Below the pieces are notes generated by a model, which was not told the origin of the DNA, did no database searches, and saw only the letters and a list, made by a program, of their open reading frames with translations. Shown here one piece after another: positions 15,017-47,245 of a DNA stretch of 64,000 nucleotides. The position numbers and the translations under genes are program-made. Position 1 is the first letter of the stretch, and each line of letters opens with the position of its first letter. The stretch spans positions 11,385 through 75,384 of the forward strand of contig CAZHMG010000001.1 of assembly GCA_964533575.1 (NCBI GenBank), read 5' to 3'. This DNA comes from an uncultured Thermoleophilia bacterium (GTDB taxonomy: Bacteria; Actinomycetota; Thermoleophilia; UBA2241).

Positions 15017-16005
15017 GTCAAGGTTTCCCATTTGTGACACTTCACCTCATGGCCCTCGCTCACCGCGCTCATCTCCGGGTTCACGTCCCAGCATTGATCG
15101 CCCGAGAGGCTGCAGCGCGGAGCAAACGAACATCCGTTGCCGACCCGCTTTCCCGTCGAAAACCCGGACACTTCAGCGTCCAGACCGACTCCCCCTGATT
15201 GCGAGGCGAAAGCTGCCGCCAGCAGGTAGCGGCTGTAGGGGTGCCGCGCATTCTTGAAGAAGTCCCTCACCGTCCCCATCTCGACCAGCTCGCCTTGCCC
15301 AAGCACGGCGACCTTGTTGCAGTAGTTGGCGACGATGCCGAGATCGCGCGTGGCCAGCAGCACGCCCGCGCGAAGCTCCTTCAACAGCCCCGACATGAGC
15401 TCGAGCACCTGCGTCTGGATGGTGACGTCGAGACCCATCGTGGGTTCGTCGGCGAGCAGCACCTGCGGGGTCATCGCCAGGGCGATCGCGAGCACAACCC
15501 TCTGAGCCATTCCCCCGCTCAACTCGTGCGGGTAGTTCTCGTAGTTGCGGGCAGGATCCGGCATCTGGACGAGGCGGAACATCTCGAGCACCTTCGCCCG
15601 TGCCTGAGCGCGATCCAGCTTCAGATTCGCCTGCATCACGTTGCACGCCTGGTCGCCGACGGTGATGATCGGACTCAGGCGTTCGCGGGCGTTGGGAGGG
15701 ATGAAGACGATGGCCTTGCCCCAGATGCGGCGCAGCTGCTCCTCGTCCTTGTCGAGGAGGTTCTCCCACGCTTCCCCATTACGGACGGAGAGCTCCTCCG
15801 CCTCCATCCACAGAGGTGGCTGGGGGTTGCGTCCCAGAGCATCGATCAGCACCGACTTGCCCGATCCGGTCTCGCCCACGAGTCCGACCACGTCTGACTG
15901 CTCCAGCGTAATTGTGATGCCGTTCAGCAGCTTCCGGCTCGTCCCCGTGAACGCCGACGGGGCGTACACGCTGAGATCTCTGACCTTGAGGACCGCGTCT
16001 GTCAT
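15013..16005 (-). CDS. Oligopeptide/dipeptide ABC transporter ATP-binding protein (OppD/DppD)
   Basis: GETGSGKS, YPHELSGGMAQRV, ADEPTMGLDVT, HPYS and CSFAPRC. Confidence 0.92.
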   Translation of the reverse strand: MTDAVLKVRDLSVYAPSAFTGTSRKLLNGITITLEQSDVVGLVGETGSGKSVLIDALGRNPQPPLWMEAEELSVRNGEAWENLLDKDEEQLRRIWGKAIVFIPPNARERLSPIITVGDQACNVMQANLKLDRAQARAKVLEMFRLVQMPDPARNYENYPHELSGGMAQRVVLAIALAMTPQVLLADEPTMGLDVTIQTQVLELMSGLLKELRAGVLLATRDLGIVANYCNKVAVLGQGELVEMGTVRDFFKNARHPYSRYLLAAAFASQSGGVGLDAEVSGFSTGKRVGNGCSFAPRCSLSGDQCWDVNPEMSAVSEGHEVKCHKWETLT

Positions 16006-33876: not shown

Positions 33877-35694
33877 TCAGATCTCCGCAATCACGGCCTT
33901 CGCCTTCATCTCGATCAGCTGCGCCGTCTGGGTGTCGCCCAAAGTGACCTTGGCGTCGGCGATCAGTTCGTTGAGAGCGGCTACCGCTCCCGCTTCGTCC
34001 TCCTGAGCGAGCGCCGCCGAGGCGGCATCGACGCCGGCGAGCAGGCGGGCGGTCAGCGTCGCGTCGATCTCCCCGGCATCAGACAACGCCGTGAGGAAGG
34101 CGCGCAGGCCGGGCAGCCCCAGGATGTACTCATCTGCCCCGATGTCCACCGCCGGCTTACCGTCGGCGTCGCCGTCGACGACGCGCTTGCCGCCGTAGAA
34201 GTCCGTTGCGGGCAGGGCCGGCCAGGAGAGGTTGCCGTGCTTGAGCCTCTCGCCGGTGTCGACGCAGGGCGAGCCGTACGTCAGGTGGAAGTCGCCGGCG
34301 GCCGGATCCGCCAGGAGAGGGTCGAGGTCGTAGAGGTTGCCGTACTCCGTGAAGGCCATGGGCAGGGTCCCGGCGACGTGGTTGATCTCTCGGGGCACAG
34401 AGTTCGGCCACCAGCAAACATTCTCGTAGAAGAGGCAGTTCGTGAGCGTTCCTCCGCGGCCGCCGCTGTAGAAGAGGGCGCCTCCGCCTGAGCGCACGGC
34501 GTTGTCGCTGAAGATGCAGTTCGTGATGGTGCCGGCGGCCAGGTTGTAGATGGCGCCACCCGCTGCTGTGTATGGCCTGAAGCGCGGCTCATACCCCGAC
34601 GTGAGATGCCGCCAGCCGTTCTTGAAGAAGGTGCAGTTCAGGATGGTGGAATTGGCGCGGTTGAAGATCGCCCCGCCGAGCCCCTCCCCATACGTGGTGA
34701 AGTTGGCGGTGAAGAGGCAGTTGGTGAGGGTCGGCTCGCTGTAGTAGTTGAGCATCGCGCCACCGTGTGTGGCCGAGTTCCCCGTGAAGGAACAGCCCTC
34801 CACAGTCTGCATGCCCGCGGCGTTGTACATACCGCCCCCGCCCCCGTATTCGAAGCTCGCGCCTGCATAGGCGGTGTTGTCGCTGAAGGTGCAGCCTGTG
34901 ACGCGGGGCCAGCTCTGTTCGGCGTATGAGCCGTAGGTACCGTAGTTGTACATGCCGCCGCCCCGCCCCCAGGCGTTCGTGGCCCAGGCGCCACCCGCAT
35001 AGTTCAACCTGAAGACGCAGTTGGTGACGGTCGGCGCGCTCTGCTCGTTGCACATGCCGGCGCCGACGGCTACCGAGTAGTTGTCCTTGGCGTCCACGCG
35101 GTTGTCGCTGAAGACGCAGTTGGTGATGGCGAGGGCGCTCTTGAAGTTGTATATTCCGGCGCCCCGAGTGTCCCTGATCTGGAGACTGGAGGCCCCTGTG
35201 ACGCGATCGCCGCGCCCCAGCGTTACCGTGAACCCATCGAGCACGGCGCCGGTCACGCCACTGGCGTAGACGACGTGGTAGCTGTTGTCCGTGACGTCAC
35301 CGGCGACTCCGATGTCGCCACTCAGAATGGTCAGCGCCGGATCCGAGCTCCGCTTCTTCAGGTCCTTCTCGACACCGACGAAGCCGCCGTAGAGGGCGAC
35401 GCCGCTCTTCAGGCTGAAGGAGGCCGTACGCGCGTCGGCGGAGCCGTCGAGAGACACACTTGGCTTGTAGGTGCCGGCAGCCACCCAGATGCTGTCGCCG
35501 GCGACGACCGCGTCCAGGGCGCTCTGCAGATCGGTGAAGGCGTTCTCCCAGCTCGTGCCGTCGTTGGCCCCGGCGGCGTCGTCGTTGACGAAGTATGTGA
35601 CCGGAGCCGCATCTGACTGGGCGGCCGCAGGGCCACCAACGAGCAGGAGCAGGGCGATCACCACCAATCCTGTCGCGAACGCCAAACGTCTCAT
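33877..35694 (-). CDS. Secreted right-handed parallel beta-helix protein (choice-of-anchor Q/Pmp-like repeats) with C-terminal FIMAH-like helical domain
   Basis: Signal peptide; DGTSWENAFTDLQSAL; repeated TNCxFxxN/GGxxYN units; DFHLTYGSPCVDTG and VDIGADE; helical C-terminus. Start set at ATG 35694 after GGAGGAG. Confidence 0.82.
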   Translation of the reverse strand: MRRLAFATGLVVIALLLLVGGPAAAQSDAAPVTYFVNDDAAGANDGTSWENAFTDLQSALDAVVAGDSIWVAAGTYKPSVSLDGSADARTASFSLKSGVALYGGFVGVEKDLKKRSSDPALTILSGDIGVAGDVTDNSYHVVYASGVTGAVLDGFTVTLGRGDRVTGASSLQIRDTRGAGIYNFKSALAITNCVFSDNRVDAKDNYSVAVGAGMCNEQSAPTVTNCVFRLNYAGGAWATNAWGRGGGMYNYGTYGSYAEQSWPRVTGCTFSDNTAYAGASFEYGGGGGMYNAAGMQTVEGCSFTGNSATHGGAMLNYYSEPTLTNCLFTANFTTYGEGLGGAIFNRANSTILNCTFFKNGWRHLTSGYEPRFRPYTAAGGAIYNLAAGTITNCIFSDNAVRSGGGALFYSGGRGGTLTNCLFYENVCWWPNSVPREINHVAGTLPMAFTEYGNLYDLDPLLADPAAGDFHLTYGSPCVDTGERLKHGNLSWPALPATDFYGGKRVVDGDADGKPAVDIGADEYILGLPGLRAFLTALSDAGEIDATLTARLLAGVDAASAALAQEDEAGAVAALNELIADAKVTLGDTQTAQLIEMKAKAVIAEI

Positions 35695-35889
35695 CGCTCC
35701 TCCTCCCCCCACTGGCTTGGATCCCTGCCTGTCGTCTACCTGGACGAATCGCGCTCGCTGCCAGGCAGACTTGGCTGATCTGGAGATCGGAGGTGTCGGG
35801 GTGCCTCCCGTGGTTGCTTCCGAGAGATGCGCTCCCGGGCAGCTCCAGATACGGCTTACCCTGATTGTGGCCCGAGCGAGGTGCCGGCG

Positions 35890-35933
35890 CACTGTCCTGA
35901 TGGACAGTCTGAGGGACAGTCTGAGGGACCGTC
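35890..35933. promoter_or_regulatory. Regulator binding site: 20-bp palindrome plus two extra half-sites
   Basis: CACTGTCCTGATGGACAGTC (35890-35909), then GGGACAGTC (35913-35921) and GGGACCGTC (35925-35933) at 12-bp spacing, between the divergent beta-helix and kinase genes. Confidence 0.72.
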
Positions 35934-36046
35934 GGGGAGTCGAGCGGCTCCGCAAGCCTGCCGGTTCCCTTCGGGGTAGCCCTACGAGTAGGCTACGGGG
36001 CGGGTCTTGATGGAGCGGTCCGAAGGGGGAGGCTCCCCCGCTCCAG

Positions 36047-37783
36047 ATGCTTTGGACGAAAGCTGCACGGATGGCTTCGTACGCCTACAGCACTTCTCTG
36101 CTGCCGCCGCTCCTCGCGATGCTCTTCATCGCGCTCCTCTCCCTGTACGGCTGGCGACACCGCAAGGTCCCGGGCGCGGTCCCATTCGCGGCCGCCTGCC
36201 TGTTCGGCGTCGCCTGGTCGCTCGGCTCGATGCTCAGCGGCGCCGCGCAGGAGCCGGAGACGAAGATCTTCTGGCTGAGGTTCGCGACCGTATGGCAGCT
36301 GCCGCTCGTCACGGCTGGTACGTGCTTTGCGCTCCAGTACGCCGGTCTGGGGCACTGGCTGACCCGCAGGGTACTGCTCGCACTCGCCGTGCCCCCGCTT
36401 CTGTTCGCCGCCGTGATCGCGACCGACGGCCTCCACCACCTCGCGTGGGCCGGCCTCACGGTCGTCGACGGATCCGTCCGAGCGGTCTACGGCCCCTTCA
36501 TAACTGCGGAGCTCGCGTACAGCTACGTCCTGTTCGTTATCAATGTCTCGGTGTTGCTCTGGTTGTTCGTCCGCTCGCCGCGGCACCGCGCGCCCGTCGC
36601 CCTCATGGTGCTCGCCCAGGTGGGAGCGCGCGTCACGTTCGAGTTCGGCGTCGTGCGGTCGTCCTTCCCTCCACAGTGGGACCCCGACCTGTTCGTCCTC
36701 CTCGTCACGTTCGGCGTGTACGCGATCGCGCTGTTCGGCTTCAACGTGCTCAACCCTGTGCCAGCCGCCCGCAGGGCGACGCTCACCCAGATGCGCGACG
36801 GCATGGTGGTCGTCGACGGCGGCGGGCGGATCGCGGACGTCAATCCCGGGGCCGAGCGCGCGCTCGGCAGGCGGGCGGCCGAGCTGCTCGGCCGCCCGCT
36901 CGGCACGGTGCCTGCGCTCGACGATCTGCTGTCGCCGCAGACGAACACGGACGCGAGCGGCAGCGACCAGGCCGATGTCGGGCCGCCCGCCCGGGACTTG
37001 AACGGCCGGCACTACCTCGTCGAGACGAAGTCGCTGGAGGATCGTCGCGGACGGCCGCTGGGCCGCCTGATCCTGCTCCACGACGTCACGGAGCAGCAGC
37101 AGGCCCAGGCTCGCCTCCTCGAGCAGGAGCGGGTGGTCGCCACACTGCAGGAGCGGGAACGACTCGCCCGCGAGCTGCACGACAGCGTGGGCCAGGTGCT
37201 CGGCTACGTGAGCATGCAGGCCCAGACGGCGAGCAAGCGCCTGCGCGACGGCGACGGCGGGAGGGCGGAGCAGCTGCTCGATCGGCTCGCCTCCGTCGCG
37301 CAGCAGGCGCATGCCGACGTGCGTGAGTCCATCCTGGCGCTTCATGCCGCGCCGTCAGCGGACTGGGCGTTCGTGCCCACGCTCCAGCGCCACCTCGAGG
37401 ACTTCGAGACGCAGTACGGCGTGACGACGGAGCTCACGGTGGACGGGCTGACCGACGACTCGTTTCCACCGGAGGCTGGGGTGCAACTGCTGCGGGTGGT
37501 TCAGGAAGCCATGACGAATGCGCGCCGGCACGGCCACGCACAGACCATCAACGTCGCGATGGAACGGCGCGGAGACAAGACGCACATCACGGTGGCGGAC
37601 GACGGCGACGGATTCGAACCGCTCATGCTGGGCGCCGACGGCGACGGCCACTTCGGCCTGCGCTTCATGCGTGAGCGGATGGCGCAGATCGCCGGCGACG
37701 TGACGATCGATTCCAGCCCCGGCGCCGGGACGAGAGTGCAACTCACGGCGCCGCTGGGCGCAGGACGGGAGGACGCGGAATGA
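36047..37783 (+). CDS. Sensor histidine kinase (N-terminal 7TM, PAS, HisKA_3, HATPase)
   Basis: Seven hydrophobic segments; PAS MRDGMVVVD...VNP; ERERLARELHDSVGQ; QEAMTNARRHG, DDGDGF, HFGLRFMRER. ATG 36071 is an alternative start. Confidence 0.93.
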   Translation: MLWTKAARMASYAYSTSLLPPLLAMLFIALLSLYGWRHRKVPGAVPFAAACLFGVAWSLGSMLSGAAQEPETKIFWLRFATVWQLPLVTAGTCFALQYAGLGHWLTRRVLLALAVPPLLFAAVIATDGLHHLAWAGLTVVDGSVRAVYGPFITAELAYSYVLFVINVSVLLWLFVRSPRHRAPVALMVLAQVGARVTFEFGVVRSSFPPQWDPDLFVLLVTFGVYAIALFGFNVLNPVPAARRATLTQMRDGMVVVDGGGRIADVNPGAERALGRRAAELLGRPLGTVPALDDLLSPQTNTDASGSDQADVGPPARDLNGRHYLVETKSLEDRRGRPLGRLILLHDVTEQQQAQARLLEQERVVATLQERERLARELHDSVGQVLGYVSMQAQTASKRLRDGDGGRAEQLLDRLASVAQQAHADVRESILALHAAPSADWAFVPTLQRHLEDFETQYGVTTELTVDGLTDDSFPPEAGVQLLRVVQEAMTNARRHGHAQTINVAMERRGDKTHITVADDGDGFEPLMLGADGDGHFGLRFMRERMAQIAGDVTIDSSPGAGTRVQLTAPLGAGREDAE

Positions 37784-38580
37784 GAGTGCTGCTGGCAGAC
37801 GACCACACCCTGCTTCTGGAGGGCTTGCGGAACCTCCTCGAAGCACACGACATCGAGGTCGTCGGGACGGCCGGCAACGGTCGCGAGGCGGCCGAACTGG
37901 CCAGGCAACTCCTCCCCGACGTCATCCTCATGGACATCCGCATGCCGGTCTGCAACGGCCTCACCGCGACTCGGCTCATCAAGGCCGAGCTGCCCCAGGT
38001 GAAGATCGTCGTGCTGACGACGTCGGCCGACGAGCGAGATCTGTTCGAGGCGGTCAAGTCAGGAGCGGGGGGCTACCTCCTCAAGAGCATAGACGCCGAC
38101 AGCCTCCTGGAAGCGTTGCGCGATGTGCAGCAGGACGTGCCACCCTTCGCTCCCGGGCTCGCGGCGAGGCTGCTGGCCGAGCTCTCGCGGAGCTCCGAGG
38201 ACGCAGAGGGAGGCGACGCGAGCGGCCAGAGCGCGACCAGCGGCGGCGACACCAGGAGTGCAACGAGCGGCGGCGAGGCGGACGGGAGCGGCCGAGCCTC
38301 TACCGAGACGCCCTCCCGCCCGCCCGCGCCGCCCTCCCCTCCGCCCGACATGCCGCCCGATCTCGACGAGCCGCTGAGCCCGCGACAGGTCGAAGTGCTC
38401 GCCCTGGTCGCGCAGGGCCTCTCGTACAAGGAGGTCGGCGAGCGTGTCTACCTCAGCCCTCGCACGGTGAAGTACCACATGGCCGAGATCATGCGGAAGC
38501 TCCACGTCCAGAACCGGGCGCAGGTCCTGGCGCATGCAGGCCACCTGCTGCGGGAGTGCGGGGTCGAGGAGAACGACTAG
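37780..38580 (+). CDS. NarL/LuxR family response regulator
   Basis: LLADDH, phospho-Asp PDVILMD, GYLLK; LuxR HTH LSPRQVEVL...TVKYHMAEIMRKL; ATGA overlap with the kinase. Confidence 0.95.
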   Translation: MRVLLADDHTLLLEGLRNLLEAHDIEVVGTAGNGREAAELARQLLPDVILMDIRMPVCNGLTATRLIKAELPQVKIVVLTTSADERDLFEAVKSGAGGYLLKSIDADSLLEALRDVQQDVPPFAPGLAARLLAELSRSSEDAEGGDASGQSATSGGDTRSATSGGEADGSGRASTETPSRPPAPPSPPPDMPPDLDEPLSPRQVEVLALVAQGLSYKEVGERVYLSPRTVKYHMAEIMRKLHVQNRAQVLAHAGHLLRECGVEEND

Positions 38581-38647
38581 CGCGCCAGTAGCAGCAGCCC
38601 GTCTGCCGGACCTCCGCCTCGGTGCGGATGAGGCCAGTGCGTACGGT

Positions 38648-38682
38648 CGGGGGCTCGGACGGCGGTGCCGTCCGAGCCCCCG
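38648..38682. terminator. Hairpin between convergent genes (bidirectional terminator)
   Basis: 16-bp perfect stem CGGGGGCTCGGACGGC-ggt-GCCGTCCGAGCCCCCG. Confidence 0.75.
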
Positions 38683-38699
38683 GCTGCAAAGCCCGATCG

Positions 38700-41339
38700 C
38701 TACTTGAGCGATACCAGCACGACGTGCTCCACGCCGTCGCCGAGGTCGACGCGCAGCTGATAGGTGCCCGCGGTCAGCCCCTTGGTGCCCCAGTTGAAGA
38801 CGTACTGCCCGCTCAAAGGGTCATAGCGGAAGAGGTTGCCCGTCGTCGCGGCGCCGGTGCTGACCGCCTCCACGGTGTCGCCCACGATCCCGCTGGACAC
38901 CTTCGCGTAGTAAAACTTGGCCACGAGGTCCGTGATGCCCGCGCTGTCTCCCGTGAGGGCGAACCTGACGGGCACGGTGCTCTTCAGCTTGAAGACGGAC
39001 GAGTCGTCGGCGTTGATCGGCTGGAGGAAACCCGACCAGCTGATCGTGGGTGCCACGAATGGCGTCACCGTCACCGTGAAGCTGCCGCCGGCCTTGTTGC
39101 CGGCGCTGTCGGTCGCCGTGCAGTTCACCGTGGTGGCGCCCACCGGGAAGGTCGAGCCCGAGGCCGGGTCGCAGCTCACTGCGACGGCACCATCGACAGC
39201 ATCGTTGGCGGTCGCCGTGAACTCAACGACGGCGCCGACGGCGCCGGCCGCCTCGACCGTCATGTCTTCAGGCAGGTGCAGGACGGGAGCCGCGTCGACG
39301 ATCGTCACCGTGAAGCTGCCGGTCGTCGTGTTGCCGGACCCGTCGGTCGCGCTGCAGTTCACGGTGTTGGTGCCCACCGGGAAGGTCGAGCCGGAGGCTG
39401 GGTCGCAGGTCACGGCGAGGGACGCGCCGTTCGCATCTTTCGCCGTCGCCGTGAACTCGACGACGGCGCCGTCGGCGCTCGTCGCCTCAACGGTCATGTC
39501 GTCGGGCAGATGAAGGACCGGCGCCACGACTATCACCGCTTCGATCGACACGTAGGTCGTTGACTGGCCGAAGAAGGGGACTGCAATCCCGTCCGTGATC
39601 ACATTCGCTGTGGCGCCGTGGGGGTCGACCGCCAACGTGTCGTAGCCTTCCCCACCGTCCACGAAGATGGTACCGCGGGCGAGCGCGGAGATGTCGAAGC
39701 GGTTGTCTCCATGCCCGCCGATCAATCTGACGCCCTCGATGTTGCCGAGGAACGTCCCCACGCCTGCCTGGTCTCTGCCTTCGATCCAGGTGAGGCCGCT
39801 GTCCGTCAGGGCGAAGTCGGAGTCGCACGTCTCGACGATCGTGTCGGCTTCGCCGCCGGTGCTCGGTTCGGTGATCGTGTTGGTCCCTGGTCCACCCGTG
39901 TACTGGTCGTTGCCGCCGTAACCGTACATGGCGTCGTCGCCGGCGCCGCCGATCAACACGTCGGCGCCGGTCCCGCCCCTGAGCACGTCGTTCCCGGGAC
40001 CGCCGTCGAACACCGCCCGGCCGGTGAACATTGGGGCGCTCAGCGTGTTGTTCCCCGACCCACCGGTCAGGCTCGCGACTTCGATCCCCGAGAGGGTATC
40101 GTCGTCCTCCGCCCCGATGGTCAGGCTCGTGTTGGCCAAGGTGAAGTTCGCGTCGCGGGTCTCGACCACCGTGTCGATCCCGGCCCCGCCGGTGATGGTG
40201 TCTCCGCCCGGTCCGCCGGACATGGCGTCGTCTCCGGCGCCGCCGATCAACTCTTCGGCGCCGGTCCCACCCCTGAGCGTGTCGTTCCCGGCGCCGCCGT
40301 CGAGTACTACAGCGCCGGTGAAGCTCAAAACGGTCAGGCTATTGTTTCCCGATCCGCCGGTCAGGTGGGCCGCCTCGATCGAAGAAAGGGTGTCCTCGCT
40401 CACCCCGTCAATGGCCAGGCTCGTGTTGGTCAAGGCGAAGTCCGCGTCGCGGGTCTCGGCCACCGTGTCGGTCCCGAAGCCGCCGTCCATGGCGTCGTCG
40501 CCGGCGCCGCCGATCAACGCGTCGTCGCCGGTCCCACCCCTGAGCACGTCGTTCCCGGGACCTCCATCGAGGTCCGCCTGACCGGTGAACATTGAGGCGC
40601 TCAGCGTGTTGTTCCCCGGCCCTCCAGTCAGCCGCGCAGCTTGGATCCCGCGGAGGGTGTCGTTGCCCTCTGCCCCGATTGTCAGACTCGTATTGCTCAA
40701 CGTGATGTTCGCATCGCGCGTCTCGACAAGAGTGTCGACGCCGCCGCCTCCGGTGATATTGTCCGTGCCTTGTCCACCGGTGAAGACGTTATCGCTGTCA
40801 TTGCCCGTGAGGGTGTCGTTGCCGACACCGCCGATCACGTTCTGGATGTTGCTGACACCGCTCGTCGCTGGGGTGGCCGCGCCCAAACCGAGGTTGACGT
40901 TTACCCCCGTGGTGAGCGCCGAGAAGTCCAGCGTGTCGGTGCCCGCGCCGCCGTTGATCGTCCCGCTGACCGCGCCTCCTGCGAAGCCGAAGGTGTCGTC
41001 GCCGGCGCCGCCGACCAGATAGCCGATCCCGCTGAAGGTGATGCTGCTGTAGCCCGCGACGGTGATCGTGCCGGCATTCGCCCCGGTCAGGCTCCAGGTC
41101 GTGGTCGCGGCGATGTCGACAACGACCATGTCGGACCCGGCGCCGACAATGGTGGCGACGTCGTAGTGAATCACCCCGCCGATATCCCGGTAATCGGGCG
41201 TGGCGTTCCCGTTCGCATCGACGACCGTGAACGCGGGGGCGGCGGCCGACGCCTGCGGGGCGCCGACCAATGCAGCGACCCCCAACGCCAGCGCCGCCAG
41301 GGCCGTCAGCAGGACGCCCCTGTACCTGTGGTTGCTCAT
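38700..41339 (-). CDS. Secreted RTX-like Ca-binding repeat protein with two HYR domains and C-terminal PxKF domain
   Basis: Sec signal peptide; many GGxGxD nonapeptides in about 90-aa tandem units; two HYR repeats (CDPASGSTFPVG...VNC); FLQPIN...STVPVRF...YVFNW. Confidence 0.87.
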   Translation of the reverse strand: MSNHRYRGVLLTALAALALGVAALVGAPQASAAAPAFTVVDANGNATPDYRDIGGVIHYDVATIVGAGSDMVVVDIAATTTWSLTGANAGTITVAGYSSITFSGIGYLVGGAGDDTFGFAGGAVSGTINGGAGTDTLDFSALTTGVNVNLGLGAATPATSGVSNIQNVIGGVGNDTLTGNDSDNVFTGGQGTDNITGGGGVDTLVETRDANITLSNTSLTIGAEGNDTLRGIQAARLTGGPGNNTLSASMFTGQADLDGGPGNDVLRGGTGDDALIGGAGDDAMDGGFGTDTVAETRDADFALTNTSLAIDGVSEDTLSSIEAAHLTGGSGNNSLTVLSFTGAVVLDGGAGNDTLRGGTGAEELIGGAGDDAMSGGPGGDTITGGAGIDTVVETRDANFTLANTSLTIGAEDDDTLSGIEVASLTGGSGNNTLSAPMFTGRAVFDGGPGNDVLRGGTGADVLIGGAGDDAMYGYGGNDQYTGGPGTNTITEPSTGGEADTIVETCDSDFALTDSGLTWIEGRDQAGVGTFLGNIEGVRLIGGHGDNRFDISALARGTIFVDGGEGYDTLAVDPHGATANVITDGIAVPFFGQSTTYVSIEAVIVVAPVLHLPDDMTVEATSADGAVVEFTATAKDANGASLAVTCDPASGSTFPVGTNTVNCSATDGSGNTTTGSFTVTIVDAAPVLHLPEDMTVEAAGAVGAVVEFTATANDAVDGAVAVSCDPASGSTFPVGATTVNCTATDSAGNKAGGSFTVTVTPFVAPTISWSGFLQPINADDSSVFKLKSTVPVRFALTGDSAGITDLVAKFYYAKVSSGIVGDTVEAVSTGAATTGNLFRYDPLSGQYVFNWGTKGLTAGTYQLRVDLGDGVEHVVLVSLK

Positions 41340-41707
41340 AATGCCCCCGCCTTTCCCATCTCATTCGGCCCCTGCCCCGCCCCATCGGCGATGAGCGCCG
41401 CCAGCGCGTCGGCAGAGAGTTCACGGTACTGGCGGCCCGTCCAGAGCCGCACCAGGTTCACATCAGGGCTGATGCCGAGCACCAGCAGGTCCGGGTCGTT
41501 CTCGAGCAGACGGAAGCATGCCTCCGGATAACCGTTCTCGATGTCGAAAAGGACGACGTCCGGGCGGCACGCCCGCAGCTCGTCGGCGCCGAGCTGCGGC
41601 GCCGGGAGCCGGATCAGCTCGAATTCAGACGCCCGATCAAGGCTCGCGCCTACACTGCCGAGCACGATCGAGTCGCCGTACAGAAGGATGCGCCGCTGCT
41701 CGCTCAT
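41336..41707 (-). CDS. Small degenerate receiver-like protein
   Basis: 123 aa; RILLYGDS...RPDVVLFDI...LLVLGIS follows the REC beta-alpha pattern; GGAGG RBS; ATGA overlap with the RTX gene. Confidence 0.65.
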   Translation of the reverse strand: MSEQRRILLYGDSIVLGSVGASLDRASEFELIRLPAPQLGADELRACRPDVVLFDIENGYPEACFRLLENDPDLLVLGISPDVNLVRLWTGRQYRELSADALAALIADGAGQGPNEMGKAGAL

Positions 41708-41768
41708 GGCCTCGCCTCCGCAGGATGCGTCTACTGCACACAACTCTCCGGCAGGCGGGGCCGCCGCA

Positions 41769-41812
41769 CAATGTCCCGCGGGACAGTCGTGGGACAGTCT
41801 CGGGGGACAGTC
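41769..41812. promoter_or_regulatory. Regulator binding site: 20-bp palindrome plus two extra half-sites
   Basis: CAATGTCCCGCGGGACAGTC (41769-41788), GGGACAGTC (41791-41799) and GGGACAGTC (41804-41812). Confidence 0.72.
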
Positions 41813-41932
41813 GTGGATACGCCTGGAGACCTCGACTCATGTGACGATCCTGAAGCCTGAGCGTCTTTCCTGCCCCAACCGGGTAGCAATGCCTTTTCGG
41901 CTTACGCAAAACACGGCACGGGAGCGTTGATC

Positions 41933-42274
41933 ATGCATGTACGACTGGTACGGTTCGAGGGCGGGACTCCCGAAGCCATCCTCGCCGAAACGGAAGAGAT
42001 ACGACGCGACGTCGACGCGATCAAGCGCCATCAACCGACGTCCTACTTCTCCAGGGAGCTGATGGGGCTCACAAGCCGCATGCGGGTGTTCGTGAACCGC
42101 GAGCAAGGCTCTGTCGCGATCCTGTTCTTCTCCGACAGCGCGGCCAACGCGGCCGAGATAGACCGGATCCTGGACGCAATGGCGCCGAGGCACGAGGGCT
42201 TCGGACGGCGGGTATCCAGGGACATCTACGAAGTCGTGCTGGACGAGGGGCTGCGCATGAGTCAGGCGGCGTAG
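41933..42274 (+). CDS. Hypothetical protein (small alpha/beta, possibly dimeric alpha-beta barrel-like)
   Basis: GGAG RBS, normal codon usage, MHVRLVRFEG...DIYEV pattern; fills the gap between minus-strand genes. Confidence 0.65.
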   Translation: MHVRLVRFEGGTPEAILAETEEIRRDVDAIKRHQPTSYFSRELMGLTSRMRVFVNREQGSVAILFFSDSAANAAEIDRILDAMAPRHEGFGRRVSRDIYEVVLDEGLRMSQAA

Positions 42275-42370
42275 GCCGGAGCGAGAGGTTCGCCCCGCCC
42301 CCGGGACACGGCGCGAAACGCAGCGCATGGCCGGCGAGCCGGCCGGACCGCGGGTTCCTCCATCAGAGAC

Positions 42371-42406
42371 GACGCCGGCGCCGCCGTGATCGGCGGCGCC
42401 GGCGTC
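42371..42406 (-). terminator. Hairpin terminator, copy 1 of 3
   Basis: 16-bp stem GACGCCGGCGCCGCCG-tgat-CGGCGGCGCCGGCGTC. Confidence 0.72.
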
Positions 42407-42438
42407 TGCTGCAACGTGGGACTGATCCCGACTCTAGC

Positions 42439-43605
42439 TCAGGGCATCACCTTCTCCAGCTTCTCGATGCCCAGCAGCCAACGGTCCGCCGTCTCGACCG
42501 GGATGGCCTTGCCCGACTGGGCCTTGATCTCGCTCCCCGTGGCGTGGAGGAGGTTCGCGGTCGTCTTGTAGGCACCCCGCTGGTATGCCGCCCTGGCGGC
42601 CAGCAGCTTCGCCTTCAGCGACGCCTTGAGGCCTGCGGGCAGCGTGACGTGCTCCTGCACGCCGAGGGCCAGATCCTGTGTCGCCGAAGCGATGCTCCCG
42701 CCGTCGGCGTCGACCGCCATGATGTTGACGCCCGCCGCGAAGAGGGTTGGGTTCGCCTCGGTGCCATCGGTCCTGATCTTCCCGATGTAGTTCATCTCTC
42801 CCATGTAGCCTCTGGTCCAGTAGATGTAGTGGTTGTACGCGTTGAACGTCCCCCCGAGGAACGACTGGCCGGTGATCCAGTCCTTGTTGAGGTGCAGTGA
42901 CCAGATGAGTCCGGAGGGCGTCTCTCCCCGACCTATCGTGCCCGCGTACGTCGAGAAGTAGAAGTAGGGTGATCCGACCCAGAGATCGCCGACGCCGTAC
43001 CACATTCGGCTTTCGGGAATCCACCAATCGTCGAACAGGACCTCTTTGTCGGTGCCGTCCGTCTTGGCGCGCGCGACGTGGCGCCCCGAGATGTTGGGCT
43101 CGTCGTACGACCAGTAGATGTGGTTGTCGTAGACGGCCAGTCCGTACGCACGCGTGCTGATCACGTTCTGGTTCACCTCGGTGCCGTCGACCCTCGCCCG
43201 GCCGATGCTCGAGCCGTCGTTGGTCCAGTAGAGGTGCGAGACACCGACGTCGATCTTCTGGGGATACCGGCATCCCGTGATGAAGCTCTGGTTGACCTCG
43301 GTCCCGTCGATTCTGGCCCGGCCGATGGTCCCGCCAAGGTAGTTCGTCCAGTAGATGTACCCCCCGCCGACCGTGACGCCCATCGCCTCGTTGCAGCCCG
43401 TGATGAAGTTCATGTCGACGCCGCTGCCGTCGTTGTTGGCGCGCCCGATGGCGTCCTCCGTCATATTGCTGCGCGTCCAGTAGACGAAAGCATCGGCCGG
43501 CGGCGCCAGCACCGCCGGCAGCAGGAGCGCCGCCGCAAGGATGGTGAACGCCAGCACCGCCCGCAGGCGCCATCCGTCCCCTAAGAATGTCGATACACTG
43601 CCCAT
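42439..43605 (-). CDS. Secreted YWTD-like beta-propeller protein with C-terminal FIMAH-like domain (paralog 1)
   Basis: Signal peptide ending ADA; repeats YWTN...IGRARIDGT; C-terminal LPAGLKASLKAKL...AQSGKAIP. Start set at ATG 43605. Confidence 0.82.
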   Translation of the reverse strand: MGSVSTFLGDGWRLRAVLAFTILAAALLLPAVLAPPADAFVYWTRSNMTEDAIGRANNDGSGVDMNFITGCNEAMGVTVGGGYIYWTNYLGGTIGRARIDGTEVNQSFITGCRYPQKIDVGVSHLYWTNDGSSIGRARVDGTEVNQNVISTRAYGLAVYDNHIYWSYDEPNISGRHVARAKTDGTDKEVLFDDWWIPESRMWYGVGDLWVGSPYFYFSTYAGTIGRGETPSGLIWSLHLNKDWITGQSFLGGTFNAYNHYIYWTRGYMGEMNYIGKIRTDGTEANPTLFAAGVNIMAVDADGGSIASATQDLALGVQEHVTLPAGLKASLKAKLLAARAAYQRGAYKTTANLLHATGSEIKAQSGKAIPVETADRWLLGIEKLEKVMP

Positions 43606-43654
43606 GTGCCTCTCCCCCAATCCCTTCTGCCCGCCCTTGATGCCGTGTGTATCG

Positions 43655-43732
43655 AGTCTATGAGCGGCTGGGCGCTCATACAATGTCCGCAGCGACAGTG
43701 CGCGGACTCAGCGACTGTCCCTTCGGACAGTC
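43655..43732 (-). promoter_or_regulatory. Promoter with two palindromic regulator sites
   Basis: Minus strand TTGTAT-N17-TAGACT; sites CAATGTCCGCAGCGACAGTG (43681-43700, overlapping the -35) and GACTGTCCCTTCGGACAGTC (43713-43732). Confidence 0.72.
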
Positions 43733-43791
43733 ATGCTTCACCAGGCGCACCGATGGTCACTCTGACGTGGGATACAGGAGGGCGAATGACA

Positions 43792-43825
43792 GAGCCGGCG
43801 CCGCCGTGAACGGCGGCGCCGGCTC
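43792..43825 (-). terminator. Hairpin terminator, copy 2 of 3
   Basis: GAGCCGGCGCCGCCG-tgaa-CGGCGGCGCCGGCTC. Confidence 0.72.
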
Positions 43826-43836
43826 GCTGTGCATTA

Positions 43837-45027
43837 TCAGGCGGAAGGCGACCCTGCCTCAGGCACCACCTTCTCCAGTCTCTCGAGTACGAGCAGCCAG
43901 CGCTCGGCCGTCTCGGCCGGGATGCCCTTGCCGGCCTGGGCCTTGATCTCATTGGCCGTCGCCTTGAGGGTGTTCAGCGTCGTCTTGTAGGCGCCCCGCT
44001 CGTACGCCGCCTTGGCGGCGAGCAGCTTCGCCTTCAGCGACGCCCTGAGGCCGGCGGGCAGCGTCGCGTGCTCCTGCACGCCGAGGGCCAGGACCTGCGT
44101 CGCCGTGGCGGCGCTCCCGCCGTCCACGGCGACGTCCAGTGCGGATTCGCCCGCGGCGAACAGTTGCGGATTTGCTCTTGTTCCGTCGGTCTTGACCTTG
44201 CCGACGTAGTTCATCTCACCGGGGACGCCGTTCCAGCCCGTGATCCAGTAGATGTAGCCCTCGTACGCATCAAACGTGCCGCCGAGGTCCGGCTGCCCGG
44301 CGATGTGATCCCCGTCGAGGTGCAGCGACCAGATGAGCCCCGAGGGCGTCTCCCCACGGCCTATGTAGTCGCCGCTCGTGTAGTAGAAGTAGGGCGACCC
44401 GACCCAGACCGCACCAAGGCCGCCGTTATCCCTGGTGAACAGAATCTCCTGATCGCTGCCGTCCGTCTTCGCCCAGGAAAGACACATCTTCGACGTGACG
44501 TAGGGTTTGTAGTACGTCCAGTAGATGTGGTTGTCGTAGACGGCAAGCCCCGTCGCGTGCGTGCTGATCACGTCCTGGTTCACCTCGGTGCCGTCGACCC
44601 TTGCCCGGGCGATGCTGGGATGGCCGCCGTACGGGTCCCAATTGGTCCAGTAGACGTGAGAGACGCCGACATCGATGATACTGGGATACCTGCAGCCGGT
44701 GATGAACGACTGGTTGACCTCGGAGCCGTCGATCTTGGCCCGTCCGATGGTGCCGCCCTGCAGGTTGGCCCAGTAGATGTACCCCCCGCCGACCGTGACG
44801 CCTTTCACTCCGACGCAGCCGGTGATGAAGTTCATGTCGACGGCGCTGCCGTCATTATTGGCGCGCCCGATGGCGTCCTCCGTCAGGTTGCTGCGCGTCC
44901 AGTAGATGAAGGCGTCGGCAGGCGGCGCCAGCACCGCCGGCAGCAGGAGCGCCGCCGTGAGGATGGCGAGCGCCAGAGCCCCCCGCAACCGCCATCCGCC
45001 CCCGAAGAATGTCGATACATCGCCCAT
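43837..45027 (-). CDS. Secreted YWTD-like beta-propeller protein with FIMAH-like domain (paralog 2)
   Basis: Same architecture as paralog 1, with high visible identity. Start set at ATG 45027. Confidence 0.82.
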   Translation of the reverse strand: MGDVSTFFGGGWRLRGALALAILTAALLLPAVLAPPADAFIYWTRSNLTEDAIGRANNDGSAVDMNFITGCVGVKGVTVGGGYIYWANLQGGTIGRAKIDGSEVNQSFITGCRYPSIIDVGVSHVYWTNWDPYGGHPSIARARVDGTEVNQDVISTHATGLAVYDNHIYWTYYKPYVTSKMCLSWAKTDGSDQEILFTRDNGGLGAVWVGSPYFYYTSGDYIGRGETPSGLIWSLHLDGDHIAGQPDLGGTFDAYEGYIYWITGWNGVPGEMNYVGKVKTDGTRANPQLFAAGESALDVAVDGGSAATATQVLALGVQEHATLPAGLRASLKAKLLAAKAAYERGAYKTTLNTLKATANEIKAQAGKGIPAETAERWLLVLERLEKVVPEAGSPSA

Positions 45028-45076
45028 GTGCCTCTCCCCCAATCCTTCTGCCCGCCCTTGGTGCCGTGATGCATCG

Positions 45077-45154
45077 AGTCTACGAGCGGTGCCGGCGTCC
45101 GCACAATGTCCGCAGCGACAGTTCCCCGTTTGCAGACTGTCCCTCGGGACAGTC
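45077..45154 (-). promoter_or_regulatory. Promoter with two palindromic regulator sites
   Basis: TTGTGC-N18-TAGACT; sites CAATGTCCGCAGCGACAGTT (45104-45123) and the perfect GACTGTCCCTCGGGACAGTC (45135-45154). Confidence 0.75.
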
Positions 45155-45277
45155 GTGCATCATCCCGATGTGAACGAAGCAAGCATCCTTCCTTGGCCGC
45201 TGTCGAATGCCAGTGCGGGGACCGGCATAGGGGGCAGCATTCCGTCTCTGACGGCCGGCACAGGAAAGCGAATGACA

Positions 45278-45314
45278 GAGCCGGCGCCGGCGCCGTGAGC
45301 GGCGGCGCCGGCTC
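45278..45314 (-). terminator. Hairpin terminator, copy 3 of 3
   Basis: GAGCCGGCGCCG...CGGCGCCGGCTC, homologous to copies 1 and 2. Confidence 0.68.
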
Positions 45315-45321
45315 GTGGCCG

Positions 45322-46497
45322 TCAGGCGGAAGGTGATCCTGCCTCGGGCACCACCTTCTGCAGTCGCTCAAGCACGAGCAGCCAGCGCTCCGCCGTCTCG
45401 GTGGGAATGGCCTTGCCCGACTGGGCCTTGATCTCGTTGGCCGTCGCGTGGAGCACGTTCAGCGTCGTCTTGTAGGCGCCCCGCTCGTAGGCCGCCCTGG
45501 CGGCCAGCAGCTTGGCTTTCAGCGACGCCTTGAGGCCGGCGGGCAGCGCGACGTGCTCCTGGACGTCGAGGGCCAGGTCCTGCGTCGCCGCGGCGACGCT
45601 GCCGCCGTCGGCGTCGACCCCCCTGACACCCACGCCCGCGGCCAGGAGTGTCGGATTGGCGCTGAACCCGTCGGTCCTGACCACGCCGATGTAGTTCATC
45701 TCTCCGGGAACGCCGTTGTACCCCGTGATCCAGAAGATGTGCCCGTCATGCACAGTGAATGGCGAGCCGAGGTTGGGCTGATTCTTGATCCAGGTCCTGT
45801 AGATGGGTCCCGACGGCAGCTGTCCTACGCCGATCGCGTCGCCCGTCCCGACGTAGAAGTAGTCGTCCGACATGACCTGGATGGGGCCGAGGTCGTAGTC
45901 CTGGAGCAGCTTCTCTTGCTGGCTGCCGTCGGCCGCGGCGCGGGCCATCCAGATCGCGCCCGTGTTGACGTTCGGCAGGGAGTACGTCCAGTAGATGTGG
46001 CCGTTGTAGTAGGAAAGCCCTACCGCATGCGTGCTGATCAGGTTCTGATTCACCTCGGTGCCGTCCACCCTCGCCCGGGCGATGGTGGAATTGCCGTGCG
46101 GGTCCCAGTTGGTCCAGTAGATGTCGGAGGGGCCGACGGCGATGTGGTCTGGGTACCTGCAACCGGTGATGAACTGTTGGTTGACCTGGGTCCCGTCGAT
46201 CCTGGCCCGCCCGATTGAGTGGCTGCGCATGTTGGTCCAGTAGATCCAGCCGCCGCTGACCGTGACGCCGCTCGCTCCGCTGCAGCCCGTGATGAAGTAC
46301 GGGTCGACCGCGCTGCCGTTGTTGTTGGCGCGCCCGATGCAGTCCTCCTGCATGTTCTGCCGAGTCCAGTAGACGAACGCGTCGGCCGGCGGCGGCAGCA
46401 CCGCCGGCAGCAGGAGCGCCGGCATGAGGATGGCGGCTGCCAGCAACGCCCGCAGCCGCCATCCATGTGTGAAACGATCCTTCGCTACGTGGTCCAT
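45322..46497 (-). CDS. Secreted YWTD-like beta-propeller protein with FIMAH-like domain (paralog 3)
   Basis: Same architecture as paralogs 1 and 2. Start set at ATG 46497 after GGAGGGGAG. Confidence 0.82.
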   Translation of the reverse strand: MDHVAKDRFTHGWRLRALLAAAILMPALLLPAVLPPPADAFVYWTRQNMQEDCIGRANNNGSAVDPYFITGCSGASGVTVSGGWIYWTNMRSHSIGRARIDGTQVNQQFITGCRYPDHIAVGPSDIYWTNWDPHGNSTIARARVDGTEVNQNLISTHAVGLSYYNGHIYWTYSLPNVNTGAIWMARAAADGSQQEKLLQDYDLGPIQVMSDDYFYVGTGDAIGVGQLPSGPIYRTWIKNQPNLGSPFTVHDGHIFWITGYNGVPGEMNYIGVVRTDGFSANPTLLAAGVGVRGVDADGGSVAAATQDLALDVQEHVALPAGLKASLKAKLLAARAAYERGAYKTTLNVLHATANEIKAQSGKAIPTETAERWLLVLERLQKVVPEAGSPSA

Positions 46498-46536
46498 GGC
46501 TCTCCCCTCCATCCCGCTGCCCACCTCACCACATCG

Positions 46537-46606
46537 AGTCTACGAGCGGTGCCGGCGCCCGCACAATGTCCGCAGCGACAGTTGCCCACTGTCCCTCGGG
46601 ACAGTC
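46537..46606 (-). promoter_or_regulatory. Promoter with two palindromic regulator sites
   Basis: TTGTGC-N18-TAGACT; sites CAATGTCCGCAGCGACAGTT (46564-46583) and CACTGTCCCTCGGGACAGTC (46587-46606). Confidence 0.75.
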
Positions 46607-46636
46607 ATGCGCGAGCGGCGACGAAGCCTCTCCTGC

Positions 46637-47245
46637 TTACGGCCGCCGTCCCGTGAGCCCGAGCAGGCGATCCTGGAGGGGCGCGTCGTCCGGGACCTCG
46701 ACCTCGGAGCCGAACACGCCGATCTGCCGCCATTCGTCGGCGTGCGGCTCGACGATCTCCCAGACGGCCTGCACCAGATCGTCGGGCAAGTCGCTGTCGA
46801 TGCCGATCGCCTTGGCGATGTCGTAGGCGCGCATCGCACGGAACAGGATCGCATGCCACAGCGCCTCGCGGGCCGTGTAGTCACCGTAGGAGTAGTGGAC
46901 GGTGCGGTCGTCCAGGTCCGACTCGTCGAGGTCCTGCACGGCTTGGATCGACTTCTGCACGAGCTCCGCGAAGCGATCCTTCGGCGCGTCCCCGAGCAGC
47001 TCGTTGTCGAGCGCACCGCCGAACGCATCCGGCCCGGCCTCGTCCATCATCATGCCGGCCATCATGGTCGGGATCCACGCCTCGTCGTAGGCCTGGTAGT
47101 CGAGGATCTCGCGCAGCGTGTAGGTGCGATCGCCTCTGGTGGGAAAGCCGTCCGGCAGCTGCATCTCCCACTGATCATCGCGGATCTGGCCGACGACGGC
47201 CTCCAAGGTTCGATCGGCTCGAATGAATGTCTGTCTCTCGTCCAT
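46637..47245 (-). CDS. TIGR03086-like DinB/MDMPI superfamily protein
   Basis: DDQW...PT...TLREIL N-terminus, YDIAKAIG and C-terminal PDDAPLQDRLLGLTGRRP typical of the family; the usual metal His residues look substituted. Confidence 0.75.
   Translation of the reverse strand: MDERQTFIRADRTLEAVVGQIRDDQWEMQLPDGFPTRGDRTYTLREILDYQAYDEAWIPTMMAGMMMDEAGPDAFGGALDNELLGDAPKDRFAELVQKSIQAVQDLDESDLDDRTVHYSYGDYTAREALWHAILFRAMRAYDIAKAIGIDSDLPDDLVQAVWEIVEPHADEWRQIGVFGSEVEVPDDAPLQDRLLGLTGRRP

Follow-up and report, generated by a model that had tools for sequence, protein, structure and literature searches.

What controls the genes for secreted proteins that lie around a membrane histidine kinase and its response regulator in an uncultured member of the Thermoleophilia? 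The DNA analysed here (the window, 64,000 nucleotides, C1:11385-75384) comes from assembly G000 of an uncultured actinobacterium of soil and rock, which counts 2,514,067 bases in 140 contigs and is rated 95.6% complete; the G+C content of the window is about 66%. Short repeats with the core TGTCCC or GGGACA stand upstream of five secreted-protein units, and we consider it likely that they are operator half-sites for the regulator encoded at 37780-38580, whose partner would be the seven-transmembrane (7TM)-PAS kinase encoded at 36047-37783. The palindrome is very probably the docking site of this regulator, and the locus can be regarded as a well-supported regulon of an uncharacterised NarL-type system. 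We assign the regulon to the regulator because co-occurrence, linkage, geometry and co-variation, all read from sequence, agree. The features concerned are the following.

33877..35694, minus strand: gene for a secreted right-handed beta-helix protein, target 1 (Pfam Beta_helix, 9.9e-17; signal-peptide-like N-terminus)
35864..35933, minus strand: beta-helix promoter; direct half-sites at 35925, at 35913 and in the left half of 35890, inverted half-site over the -35 position (35887-35892), 17 nt, CACAAT (35864-35869)
36047..37783, plus strand: sensor histidine kinase (HisKA_7TM, PAS, HisKA_3 and HATPase_c)
37780..38580, plus strand: NarL/FixJ-family response regulator (REC and GerE helix-turn-helix (HTH) domains, long low-complexity linker)
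38700..41339, minus strand: secreted RTX-repeat/HYR-domain protein (Pfam; signal-peptide-like start)
41336..41707, minus strand: REC-like protein of 123 amino acids (aa), orphan family without a Pfam domain, first gene of target operon 2
41743..41812, minus strand: REC-like/RTX promoter; direct half-sites at 41804, 41791 and 41780, inverted half-site ending in the -35 TTG (41766-41771), 17 nt, GAGAGT (41743-41748)
42439..43605, minus strand: secreted beta-propeller gene 1 (DUF5050/YWTD-like; signal-peptide-like start)
43655..43732, minus strand: propeller 1 promoter; strong distal palindrome at 43713, weak proximal one at 43681 over the -35 TTGTAT, 17 nt, TAGACT
43837..45027, minus strand: secreted beta-propeller gene 2 (Pfam, DUF5050/YWTD-like; signal-peptide-like start)
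45077..45154, minus strand: propeller 2 promoter; perfect distal palindrome at 45135, weak proximal one at 45104 over the -35 TTGTGC, 18 nt, TAGACT
45322..46512, minus strand: secreted beta-propeller gene 3 (start at ATG 46512 or 46497; signal-peptide-like start)
46537..46606, minus strand: propeller 3 promoter; distal palindrome at 46587, weak proximal one at 46564 over the -35 TTGTGC, 18 nt, TAGACT
G000 contig C54 (locus L027), 15066-15420, outside the window: sixth promoter with the motif; perfect palindrome, three direct half-sites and an inverted half-site over the -35

The repeats and the promoters that carry them

The initial annotation of this DNA described eight copies of an inverted repeat with two 9-base arms and a 2-bp gap (9-2-9), together with four single half-sites, and all of them are present, with 0-5 mismatches. 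Compared with our query, GACTGTCCC-NN-GGGACAGTC, the copy at 45135 has 0 mismatches, those at 43713 and 46587 have 1 each, 41769 has 2, 35890 has 3, and 43681, 45104 and 46564 have 5 each. Of the annotated half-sites, only that at 35925 deviates from the query, by one mismatch, while 35913, 41791 and 41804 match it exactly; a further exact half-site, beyond those annotated, lies at 41780. When up to 3 mismatches were allowed, the window gave 6 matches, as against a mean of 0.06 and a largest value of 2 in 100 dinucleotide-preserving shuffles, none of which reached 6. The sixth of these matches is a direct pair at 41793, which was not among the annotated palindromes. The weak proximal copies before the propeller genes are not significant alone; they are supported by their fixed position over the -35 and by their equivalents in other genomes. 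All copies in the window had been called intergenic, and this holds after correction of one gene start: the 35890 cluster falls within an over-long open reading frame (ORF) beginning at TTG 35955, while the signal peptide of the beta-helix protein begins at Met 35694, which is the true start of the gene and leaves the cluster between genes.

A scan of the whole of G000 at the same threshold gave 7 matches: besides the 6 of the window there is only one, a perfect copy at C54:15274. Palindromic copies are confined to six promoter regions, five in the window and the sixth on contig C54. The exact 9-mer half-site occurs 28 times in G000 (8 copies for a reversed control 9-mer); 12 occurrences fall within the six promoter regions and 16 are isolated, 12 of the latter in coding and 4 in intergenic DNA according to heuristic gene calls. 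A partner half-site was absent at all five of the isolated exact half-sites that were inspected, and we rejected the isolated half-sites as additional members of the regulon. Chance cannot explain the palindrome, which is also not common in coding DNA; the genome-wide scan proposed with the initial annotation came out in its favour. Its description of the locus as a complete regulon was too strong: the C54 promoter lies outside the window, so the regulon is not complete there, and the assembly itself is 95.6% complete. The C54 promoter begins about 130 bp after a tRNA-Met gene (15066-15142) and drives a REC-like paralog (15411-15800), followed by a signal-peptide-like ORF that runs off the contig and for which Pfam gave nothing meaningful at E 5.

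For the layout of these promoters we collected 45 of them from G000, 11 other genomes and metagenome contigs, and anchored 39. The six left out were propeller 3 of G000, L066 and L070, where the script had anchored the distal palindrome, and L079, L080 and G155, which carry variant motifs. Read toward the target gene, the common layout consists of direct GACTGTCCC half-sites, one to three of them, repeating every 11-12 bp, then an inverted half-site GGGACATTG (sometimes ending in AGTG), a non-conserved spacer and a -10-like nAnnnT hexamer; the consensus of the anchored promoters is CTGTCCC-NN-GGGACATTG. In 39 of 39 the last three bases of the inner half-site are the -35 TTG, and the -10-like hexamer follows the TTGnnn hexamer after 17 nt in 32 promoters, 18 nt in 5 and 16 nt in 2, with CAGACT as the commonest -10 (12 occurrences). 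The dyad centre thereby falls near -42.5 in the usual numbering, relative to the predicted start. The operator had been described as a 9-2-9 inverted repeat; the palindromes exist, but the usual grammar is one of direct repeats with a single inverted half-site. The propeller genes of G000 follow a variant layout, with the weak palindrome over the -35 and a strong one 23, 31 or 32 bp upstream, and the earlier account of their promoters, in which the proximal copy overlaps a -35 (TTGTAT or TTGTGC) set 17 or 18 nt from TAGACT, proved accurate. The beta-helix layout is repeated upstream of the ortholog in G007, and that of the REC-like/RTX promoter, including its GAGAGT, is identical in G007, G268 and L062.

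Class II activators bind sites that overlap the -35 region, with a dyad near -41.5. Judged by alignment, the geometry of the 39 promoters is class-II-like. Between 35600 and 46800 a generic scan for sigma-70 promoters returned 0 sites, since the -35 hexamers keep only the TTG and are otherwise poor. A search for RNA runs that cover 41300-46700 listed none. We also considered a promoter for an extracytoplasmic-function (ECF) sigma factor and rejected it: the element is dyadic, occurs in arrays and lies upstream of a separate -10 at sigma-70-type spacing.

In G000 the spacers between -35 and -10 of the beta-helix gene and of propellers 2 and 3 (35870-35886, 45083-45100 and 46543-46560) share the run CGCCGGCACC...GCTCG, which is missing from the orthologous promoters of G007. 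This pattern suggests promoter copying or gene conversion within G000.

Motif and regulator in other genomes

The first comparison set comprised 41 relatives. Full-length orthologs of the regulator with more than 60% identity were found there only in G007, G027 and G037, with fragments in G018 and G005, and the palindrome occurred only in G000, G005, G007, G027 and G037. We then used a class-wide set of 401 Thermoleophilia genomes, with cut-offs of E <= 1e-45 for the regulator and at most 1 mismatch for the motif. The regulator is present in 10 of these genomes (G000, G007, G018, G347, G027, G037, G055, G102, G155 and G265), the REC-like gene in 12 (the same ten, G005 and G268), and the motif in 15, that is, in 8 of the 10 regulator carriers, in G005 and G268, and as single hits in 5 more. 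These five single one-mismatch hits look like chance, because a reversed control pattern reaches 6 genomes (G010, G158, G206, G210, G284 and G365). Both regulator carriers without a standard match have related sequences: G018 shows an array of half-sites where its regulator contig ends, and G155 has a variant motif. In G005 the regulator is present in pieces.

Linkage is equally regular. Kinase, regulator, sites and REC-like gene follow one another on one strand in eight genomes (G027, G018, G347, G265, G102, G055, G155 and G005); the order is met again on metagenome contigs of 46-71% G+C and is rearranged in G000, G007 and G037. The kinase/regulator pair is kept in all orthologous loci, and in the related loci that we compared the sites have no other conserved DNA-binding gene as a neighbour. 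The propeller ortholog of G007 has kept its array even though it is found on another contig than the regulator.

A metagenome search with an alignment of the REC-like protein gave 20 loci with 46-71% G+C, among them duplicates (L071, L073 and L074 are the same, L061 matches L062, and L072 matches G037). Upstream DNA was available for 19 of the 20; the array is standard in 17 of these and variant in 2. The HTH of the regulator lies in the flank of 14 of the 20 loci, and a crude test found a signal-peptide-like protein directly after the REC-like gene, likewise in 14 of 20.

Could the repeats be non-regulatory, as remnants of a copied promoter cassette, ends of mobile elements or recombination sites? 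The three propeller promoters belong to tandem paralogs, the beta-helix and propeller 2 and 3 promoters of G000 share extra spacer bases, and the C54 copy lies close to a tRNA-Met gene, all of which fits such an origin. We nevertheless find this explanation hardly credible: flanks and spacers have diverged but the motif has been retained, both before non-homologous genes and in genomes whose G+C ranges from 46 to 71%, its register with the -10 is fixed, and no transposase or integrase is associated with it.

The exact sequence GACTGTCCC-NN-GGGACATTG occurs at 8 loci in all prokaryote species genomes, 5 of them in Thermoleophilia, Gaiellales or actinobacterial metagenome-assembled genomes (MAGs). 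The other 3 are single sites in MAGs of Gemmatimonadaceae, Planctomycetales and Thermodesulfobacteriota. With one site each and no regulator ortholog, these three were treated as chance and not as carriers of the system; by our own rough reckoning, 18 specified bases should be matched by chance 10-20 times in 596 Gb. At the Thermodesulfobacteriota locus (L033, 4270-4320) the exact site has a direct half-site upstream, which gives a direct-direct-inverted layout in AT-rich surroundings; from its sequence this site is either a chance match or a distant, unrecognised version of the system.

The initial annotation had also proposed that the two-component system may regulate itself through the 35890 cluster. 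The comparison did not support this proposal: the array points at the beta-helix gene, and autoregulation is not conserved. There is no array before the kinase gene in G027, G037, G102, G055 and G155, and in G000, G007 and G347 the adjoining array is oriented away from the kinase gene.

The regulator as the probable binding protein

By its sequence the regulator belongs to the NarL/FixJ family and has its phospho-acceptor residues intact. Its Pfam matches are Response_reg (3.7e-28) and GerE (2.4e-17), and D7, D8, D52, T80 and K102 are invariant in 15 orthologs. The closest solved structures are VraR (5hev, E 1.1e-46), NarL (1a04) and DevR (3c3w, E 2e-34), DesR is a further solved relative, and the best matches of the HTH are the DNA-binding domains of LiaR and VraR. 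Kinases with HisKA_3 are the type that pairs with NarL-type regulators. The kinase of this locus has HisKA_3 (5.8e-15) and HATPase_c, its His378 is invariant in 10 orthologs, and the start of the regulator gene overlaps its stop codon (ATGA). REC and HTH of the regulator are joined by a linker of low complexity (38185-38370), about 60 residues long, in which Pro, Ser, Gly and Ala abound; its length varies widely among the 15 orthologs. Speculatively, such a long linker might permit either orientation of the DNA-binding domains.

A more specific link between regulator and motif comes from loci in which both are altered. All regulators that go with the standard motif keep [ST][PA]R-T-[VI]-K-Y-H-M-[AG]-E in the region of the recognition helix. 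In G155, the only genome of the class set in which motif and helix both differ, the helix reads A-T-C-T-V-K, with Cys for Arg just before T-V-K, and Gln replaces Arg at a later position. The half-sites of G155 are ACTCTCC and GGAGAGT: in its REC-like promoter the G of ACTGTCC is replaced by C (once by A) in every readable half-site, and one perfect variant palindrome is present, which occurs once in G155 and is absent from G000, G102 and G027. A search for more carriers of the helix variant in the genus of G155 (4 genomes) found the regulator only in G155 and G102. Of the metagenome contigs, L080 has the helix S-E-R, I-I-E-K together with the sites ACTGTACC and GGTACATTG, and in L079 helix and sites are both more divergent. 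Such co-variation of motif and helix is what direct recognition predicts.

The claim that the adjacent 7TM-kinase/NarL pair controls the secreted-protein promoters through sites at the -35 is thus supported by co-occurrence, adjacency, geometry and helix co-variation. In the mechanism that we propose, a signal perceived by the membrane kinase would lead to phosphorylation of the regulator, presumably at the conserved Asp52. A regulator dimer would then occupy the promoter-proximal inverted pair, the inner half-site of which ends in the -35 TTG, with its dyad near -42.5 as measured from the predicted -10. Further protomers may bind the one to three upstream half-sites, which at 11-12 bp apart would lie on the same face of the DNA; at the propeller genes the second palindrome, 23-32 bp upstream, may be occupied instead. 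The bound regulator would recruit RNA polymerase to promoters with a poor -35, i.e., act by class II activation by analogy with DosR/DevR. The output would be a variable set of secreted or surface proteins, here the beta-helix, RTX/HYR and beta-propeller proteins and in relatives PKD/Ig/TIG proteins and small secreted proteins. The small cytoplasmic REC-like protein would always be among the targets and, more speculatively, may feed back on the system.

Several observations weigh against assigning the motif to this regulator or against parts of the mechanism. Genome G268 (rated 91% complete, 350 contigs) has 4-5 sites and two REC-like genes, and no ortholog of the kinase or the regulator was found in it, the best HTH identity being 46-48%. 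The initial expectation that the motif goes with the regulator therefore held only in part across the 401 genomes: the two co-occur in most carriers, and the single true exception is G268, where the motif was found without the regulator. Any other component passed on together with the cassette would, in addition, co-occur with the motif just as the regulator does. The co-variation comes from a single lineage of the class and two distant contigs, and in G155 the regulator gene (L054, G155:C9, 7770-8470) has REC and HTH in different frames, either through an error of assembly or because the linker contains a frameshift, so that the system of this genome may be decaying. The generic sigma-70 scan was empty and the assignment of -35 and -10 therefore rests on our own alignment, direct repeats of half-sites depart from what textbooks describe for a symmetric GerE-type dimer, and a site over the -35 could equally repress.

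The case of G268 leads to the alternative that a different, unlinked transcription factor binds the motif and the kinase/regulator pair only shares the island, co-occurrence not being binding. We regard this as quite improbable. The regulator gene lies immediately beside the sites in eight genomes and on divergent low-GC contigs, no other DNA-binding gene is conserved there, and the motif varies only where the recognition helix differs. As for G268, its motif-bearing contigs are short (4.3-7.3 kb), and the pair may be unassembled.

The sign of regulation is not given by sequence alone, and the same regulator might be a repressor or have a dual role, its occupancy of the -35 blocking RNA polymerase until the signal removes it. 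The proximal half-site over the -35 in 39 of 39 aligned promoters would suit this mode as well. We think it unlikely, since the -35 is poor except for the TTG of the half-site and 0 sigma-70-like promoters were found, which fits dependence on an activator, and since repression does not need a fixed register with the -10. A dyad near -42.5 with in-phase sites upstream also matches the activating DevR layout, as described in excerpts of PMC3177182.

The proposed activation by the NarL-type regulator can also be set beside the systems that its sequence recalls. NarL of Escherichia coli binds 7-2-7 sites, in which inverted half-sites with a 2-bp gap take up a GerE-type dimer; at NarL promoters half-sites can also be single or differently oriented. 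The sites described here share the inverted half-sites 2 bp apart and differ from those of NarL in half-site sequence and length, and NarX senses nitrate in the periplasm whereas our kinase has a 7TM domain. The VraSR/LiaSR systems of Firmicutes resemble the present one in that VraR is the closest solved sequence match, LiaR and VraR are the best HTH matches, and a HisKA_3-type kinase is combined with a NarL-type regulator. They differ in kinase architecture, operator sequence and regulon content, and their third component is a membrane protein (LiaF/VraT), in contrast to the cytoplasmic REC-like protein of this locus.

The Dev-box consensus of DosR/DevR from Mycobacterium tuberculosis carries GGG on the outside of each half. 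In our motif GGG faces the dyad centre (TGTCCC-NN-GGGACA), which is the reverse of that consensus, and the upstream elements are mostly direct-repeat half-sites instead of full boxes. Where DosR has K182 and N183, the residues of our regulator appear to differ, as read from VraR/LiaR alignments; the kinase is of the 7TM-PAS type, unlike the GAF/haem sensors DosS and DosT; and the targets are secreted proteins, not dormancy genes. On the other hand, both regulators are of the NarL/FixJ family, with DevR (3c3w) among the best solved matches, both sites are dyads of about 20 bp with GGGAC/GTCCC cores, and both systems use two or more tandem in-phase sites, here half-sites at 11-12 bp. At tgs1-Rv3131, according to excerpts of PMC3177182, the DevR boxes have their centres at -42.5 and -63.5 and are in helical phase, and their tandem arrangement is required; the proximal one thus corresponds to our dyad near -42.5. 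DosR, in excerpts of PMC13486717, reads GGGACT/TGTCCC through helix alpha9 and activates by contact with sigma region 4, and the mode proposed here would be similar.

The principle, a NarL-type regulator with palindromic class II sites, is textbook. What the locus offers is a candidate operator, a promoter grammar and a target list for an uncharacterised HisKA_7TM two-component family in Thermoleophilia, a class for which we know of no genetics. The motif variant of G155 and its helix change form a natural pair for a specificity swap. In the literature searched, HisKA_7TM came up only in two papers, of the census or review kind, on archaeal kinases, and a search for the motif strings gave no relevant paper among the matches listed.

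The REC-like protein and the targets

From the comparison of loci, the REC-like gene is the universal and most conserved target, and the secreted cargo that follows it varies. Its promoter carries the motif in every genome with readable upstream DNA. The target set given initially was right for the five named secreted-protein units, all of which carry the motif, but had missed the REC-like gene as the universal target. In the window the start of the RTX/HYR gene overlaps the stop of the REC-like gene (ATGA), and the two are for this reason probably co-transcribed.

None of the 21 homologs of the REC-like protein has a Pfam domain, and the protein itself gave no Pfam hit even at E 5. Alignment of the family with the regulator by hhalign gave a probability of 69% (E 4.6e-5, 56 columns), with the invariant Asp55 aligned to Asp52; at the first acidic position D, N or R is found, and an equivalent of the Lys was not seen. 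Remote similarity was found only to receivers. The AlphaFold model (pLDDT 73) shows a beta-alpha pattern and then a hairpin. Foldseek found nothing in the PDB at E <= 1e-3; its weak hits included DivK, a LuxR-family receiver and also anticodon-binding domains of tRNA synthetases. Atlas neighbours of the protein fall in clusters most often labelled Chloroflexota. That it feeds back on the kinase or the regulator is speculative. A predicted complex of the protein with kinase residues 352-578 scored 0.00, controls not having been run.

Since this protein is present in every motif-bearing genome, G268 included, and its own promoter carries the motif wherever the upstream DNA is readable, one may ask whether it recognises the sites itself, alone or with a partner, and autoregulates. 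This appears very improbable: the predicted fold is a small alpha/beta receiver-like one with no helix-turn-helix, the remote similarity is to receiver domains only, and the 9-2-9 dyad fits a GerE-type dimer. Being invariably co-regulated, the REC-like protein is a candidate new accessory component.

A wider proposal, which we offer tentatively and as rather doubtful, is that 7TM-PAS kinase, NarL-type regulator with its long flexible linker and orphan pseudo-receiver form a portable three-gene cassette with its own promoter grammar, in which direct TGTCCC half-sites are closed by a single inverted one joined to the -35 TTG. Such a cassette would have moved between Thermoleophilia and lower-GC, possibly Chloroflexota, lineages and would recruit host-specific secreted cargo through promoter acquisition. 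The pseudo-receiver would be induced first, ahead of the secreted protein, as a feedback partner or a helper of the cargo. If true, this would be a three-component system rather than a plain two-component regulon.

The targets differ between genomes. Relatives have PKD/DUF11/Ig proteins, HYR/FIMAH proteins, DUF1254/DUF1214 proteins, a protein of >1,778 aa with PMP repeats, Ig and TIG domains, and small secreted proteins without a Pfam family. A further target in G007 (L057, G007:C1, 2480-5600) consists of an array followed by a degenerate REC-like ORF of 94 aa and a secreted protein of 889 aa without a Pfam family. In the window, the domains named initially for the genes agree with Pfam (Beta_helix, 7TM kinase, REC with GerE, RTX/HYR, propellers). 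One frame needed correction: the ORF listed for propeller 1 (42434-43573) is in the wrong frame, and the real gene is 42439-43605. Divergent from the REC-like promoter region is an ORF of 115 aa (41927-42274) with good codon bias, for which neither a Pfam family (E 5) nor a counterpart in the related loci searched was found. Finally, a helical C-terminal FIMAH-like domain recurs on otherwise unrelated proteins of the regulon (33877-34060; 42439-42620; L022, 8284-9825). The match is weak for the beta-helix protein (E 0.009) and is seen also in an HYR protein of G037, and the C-terminus of the propeller likewise matches other proteins in relatives.

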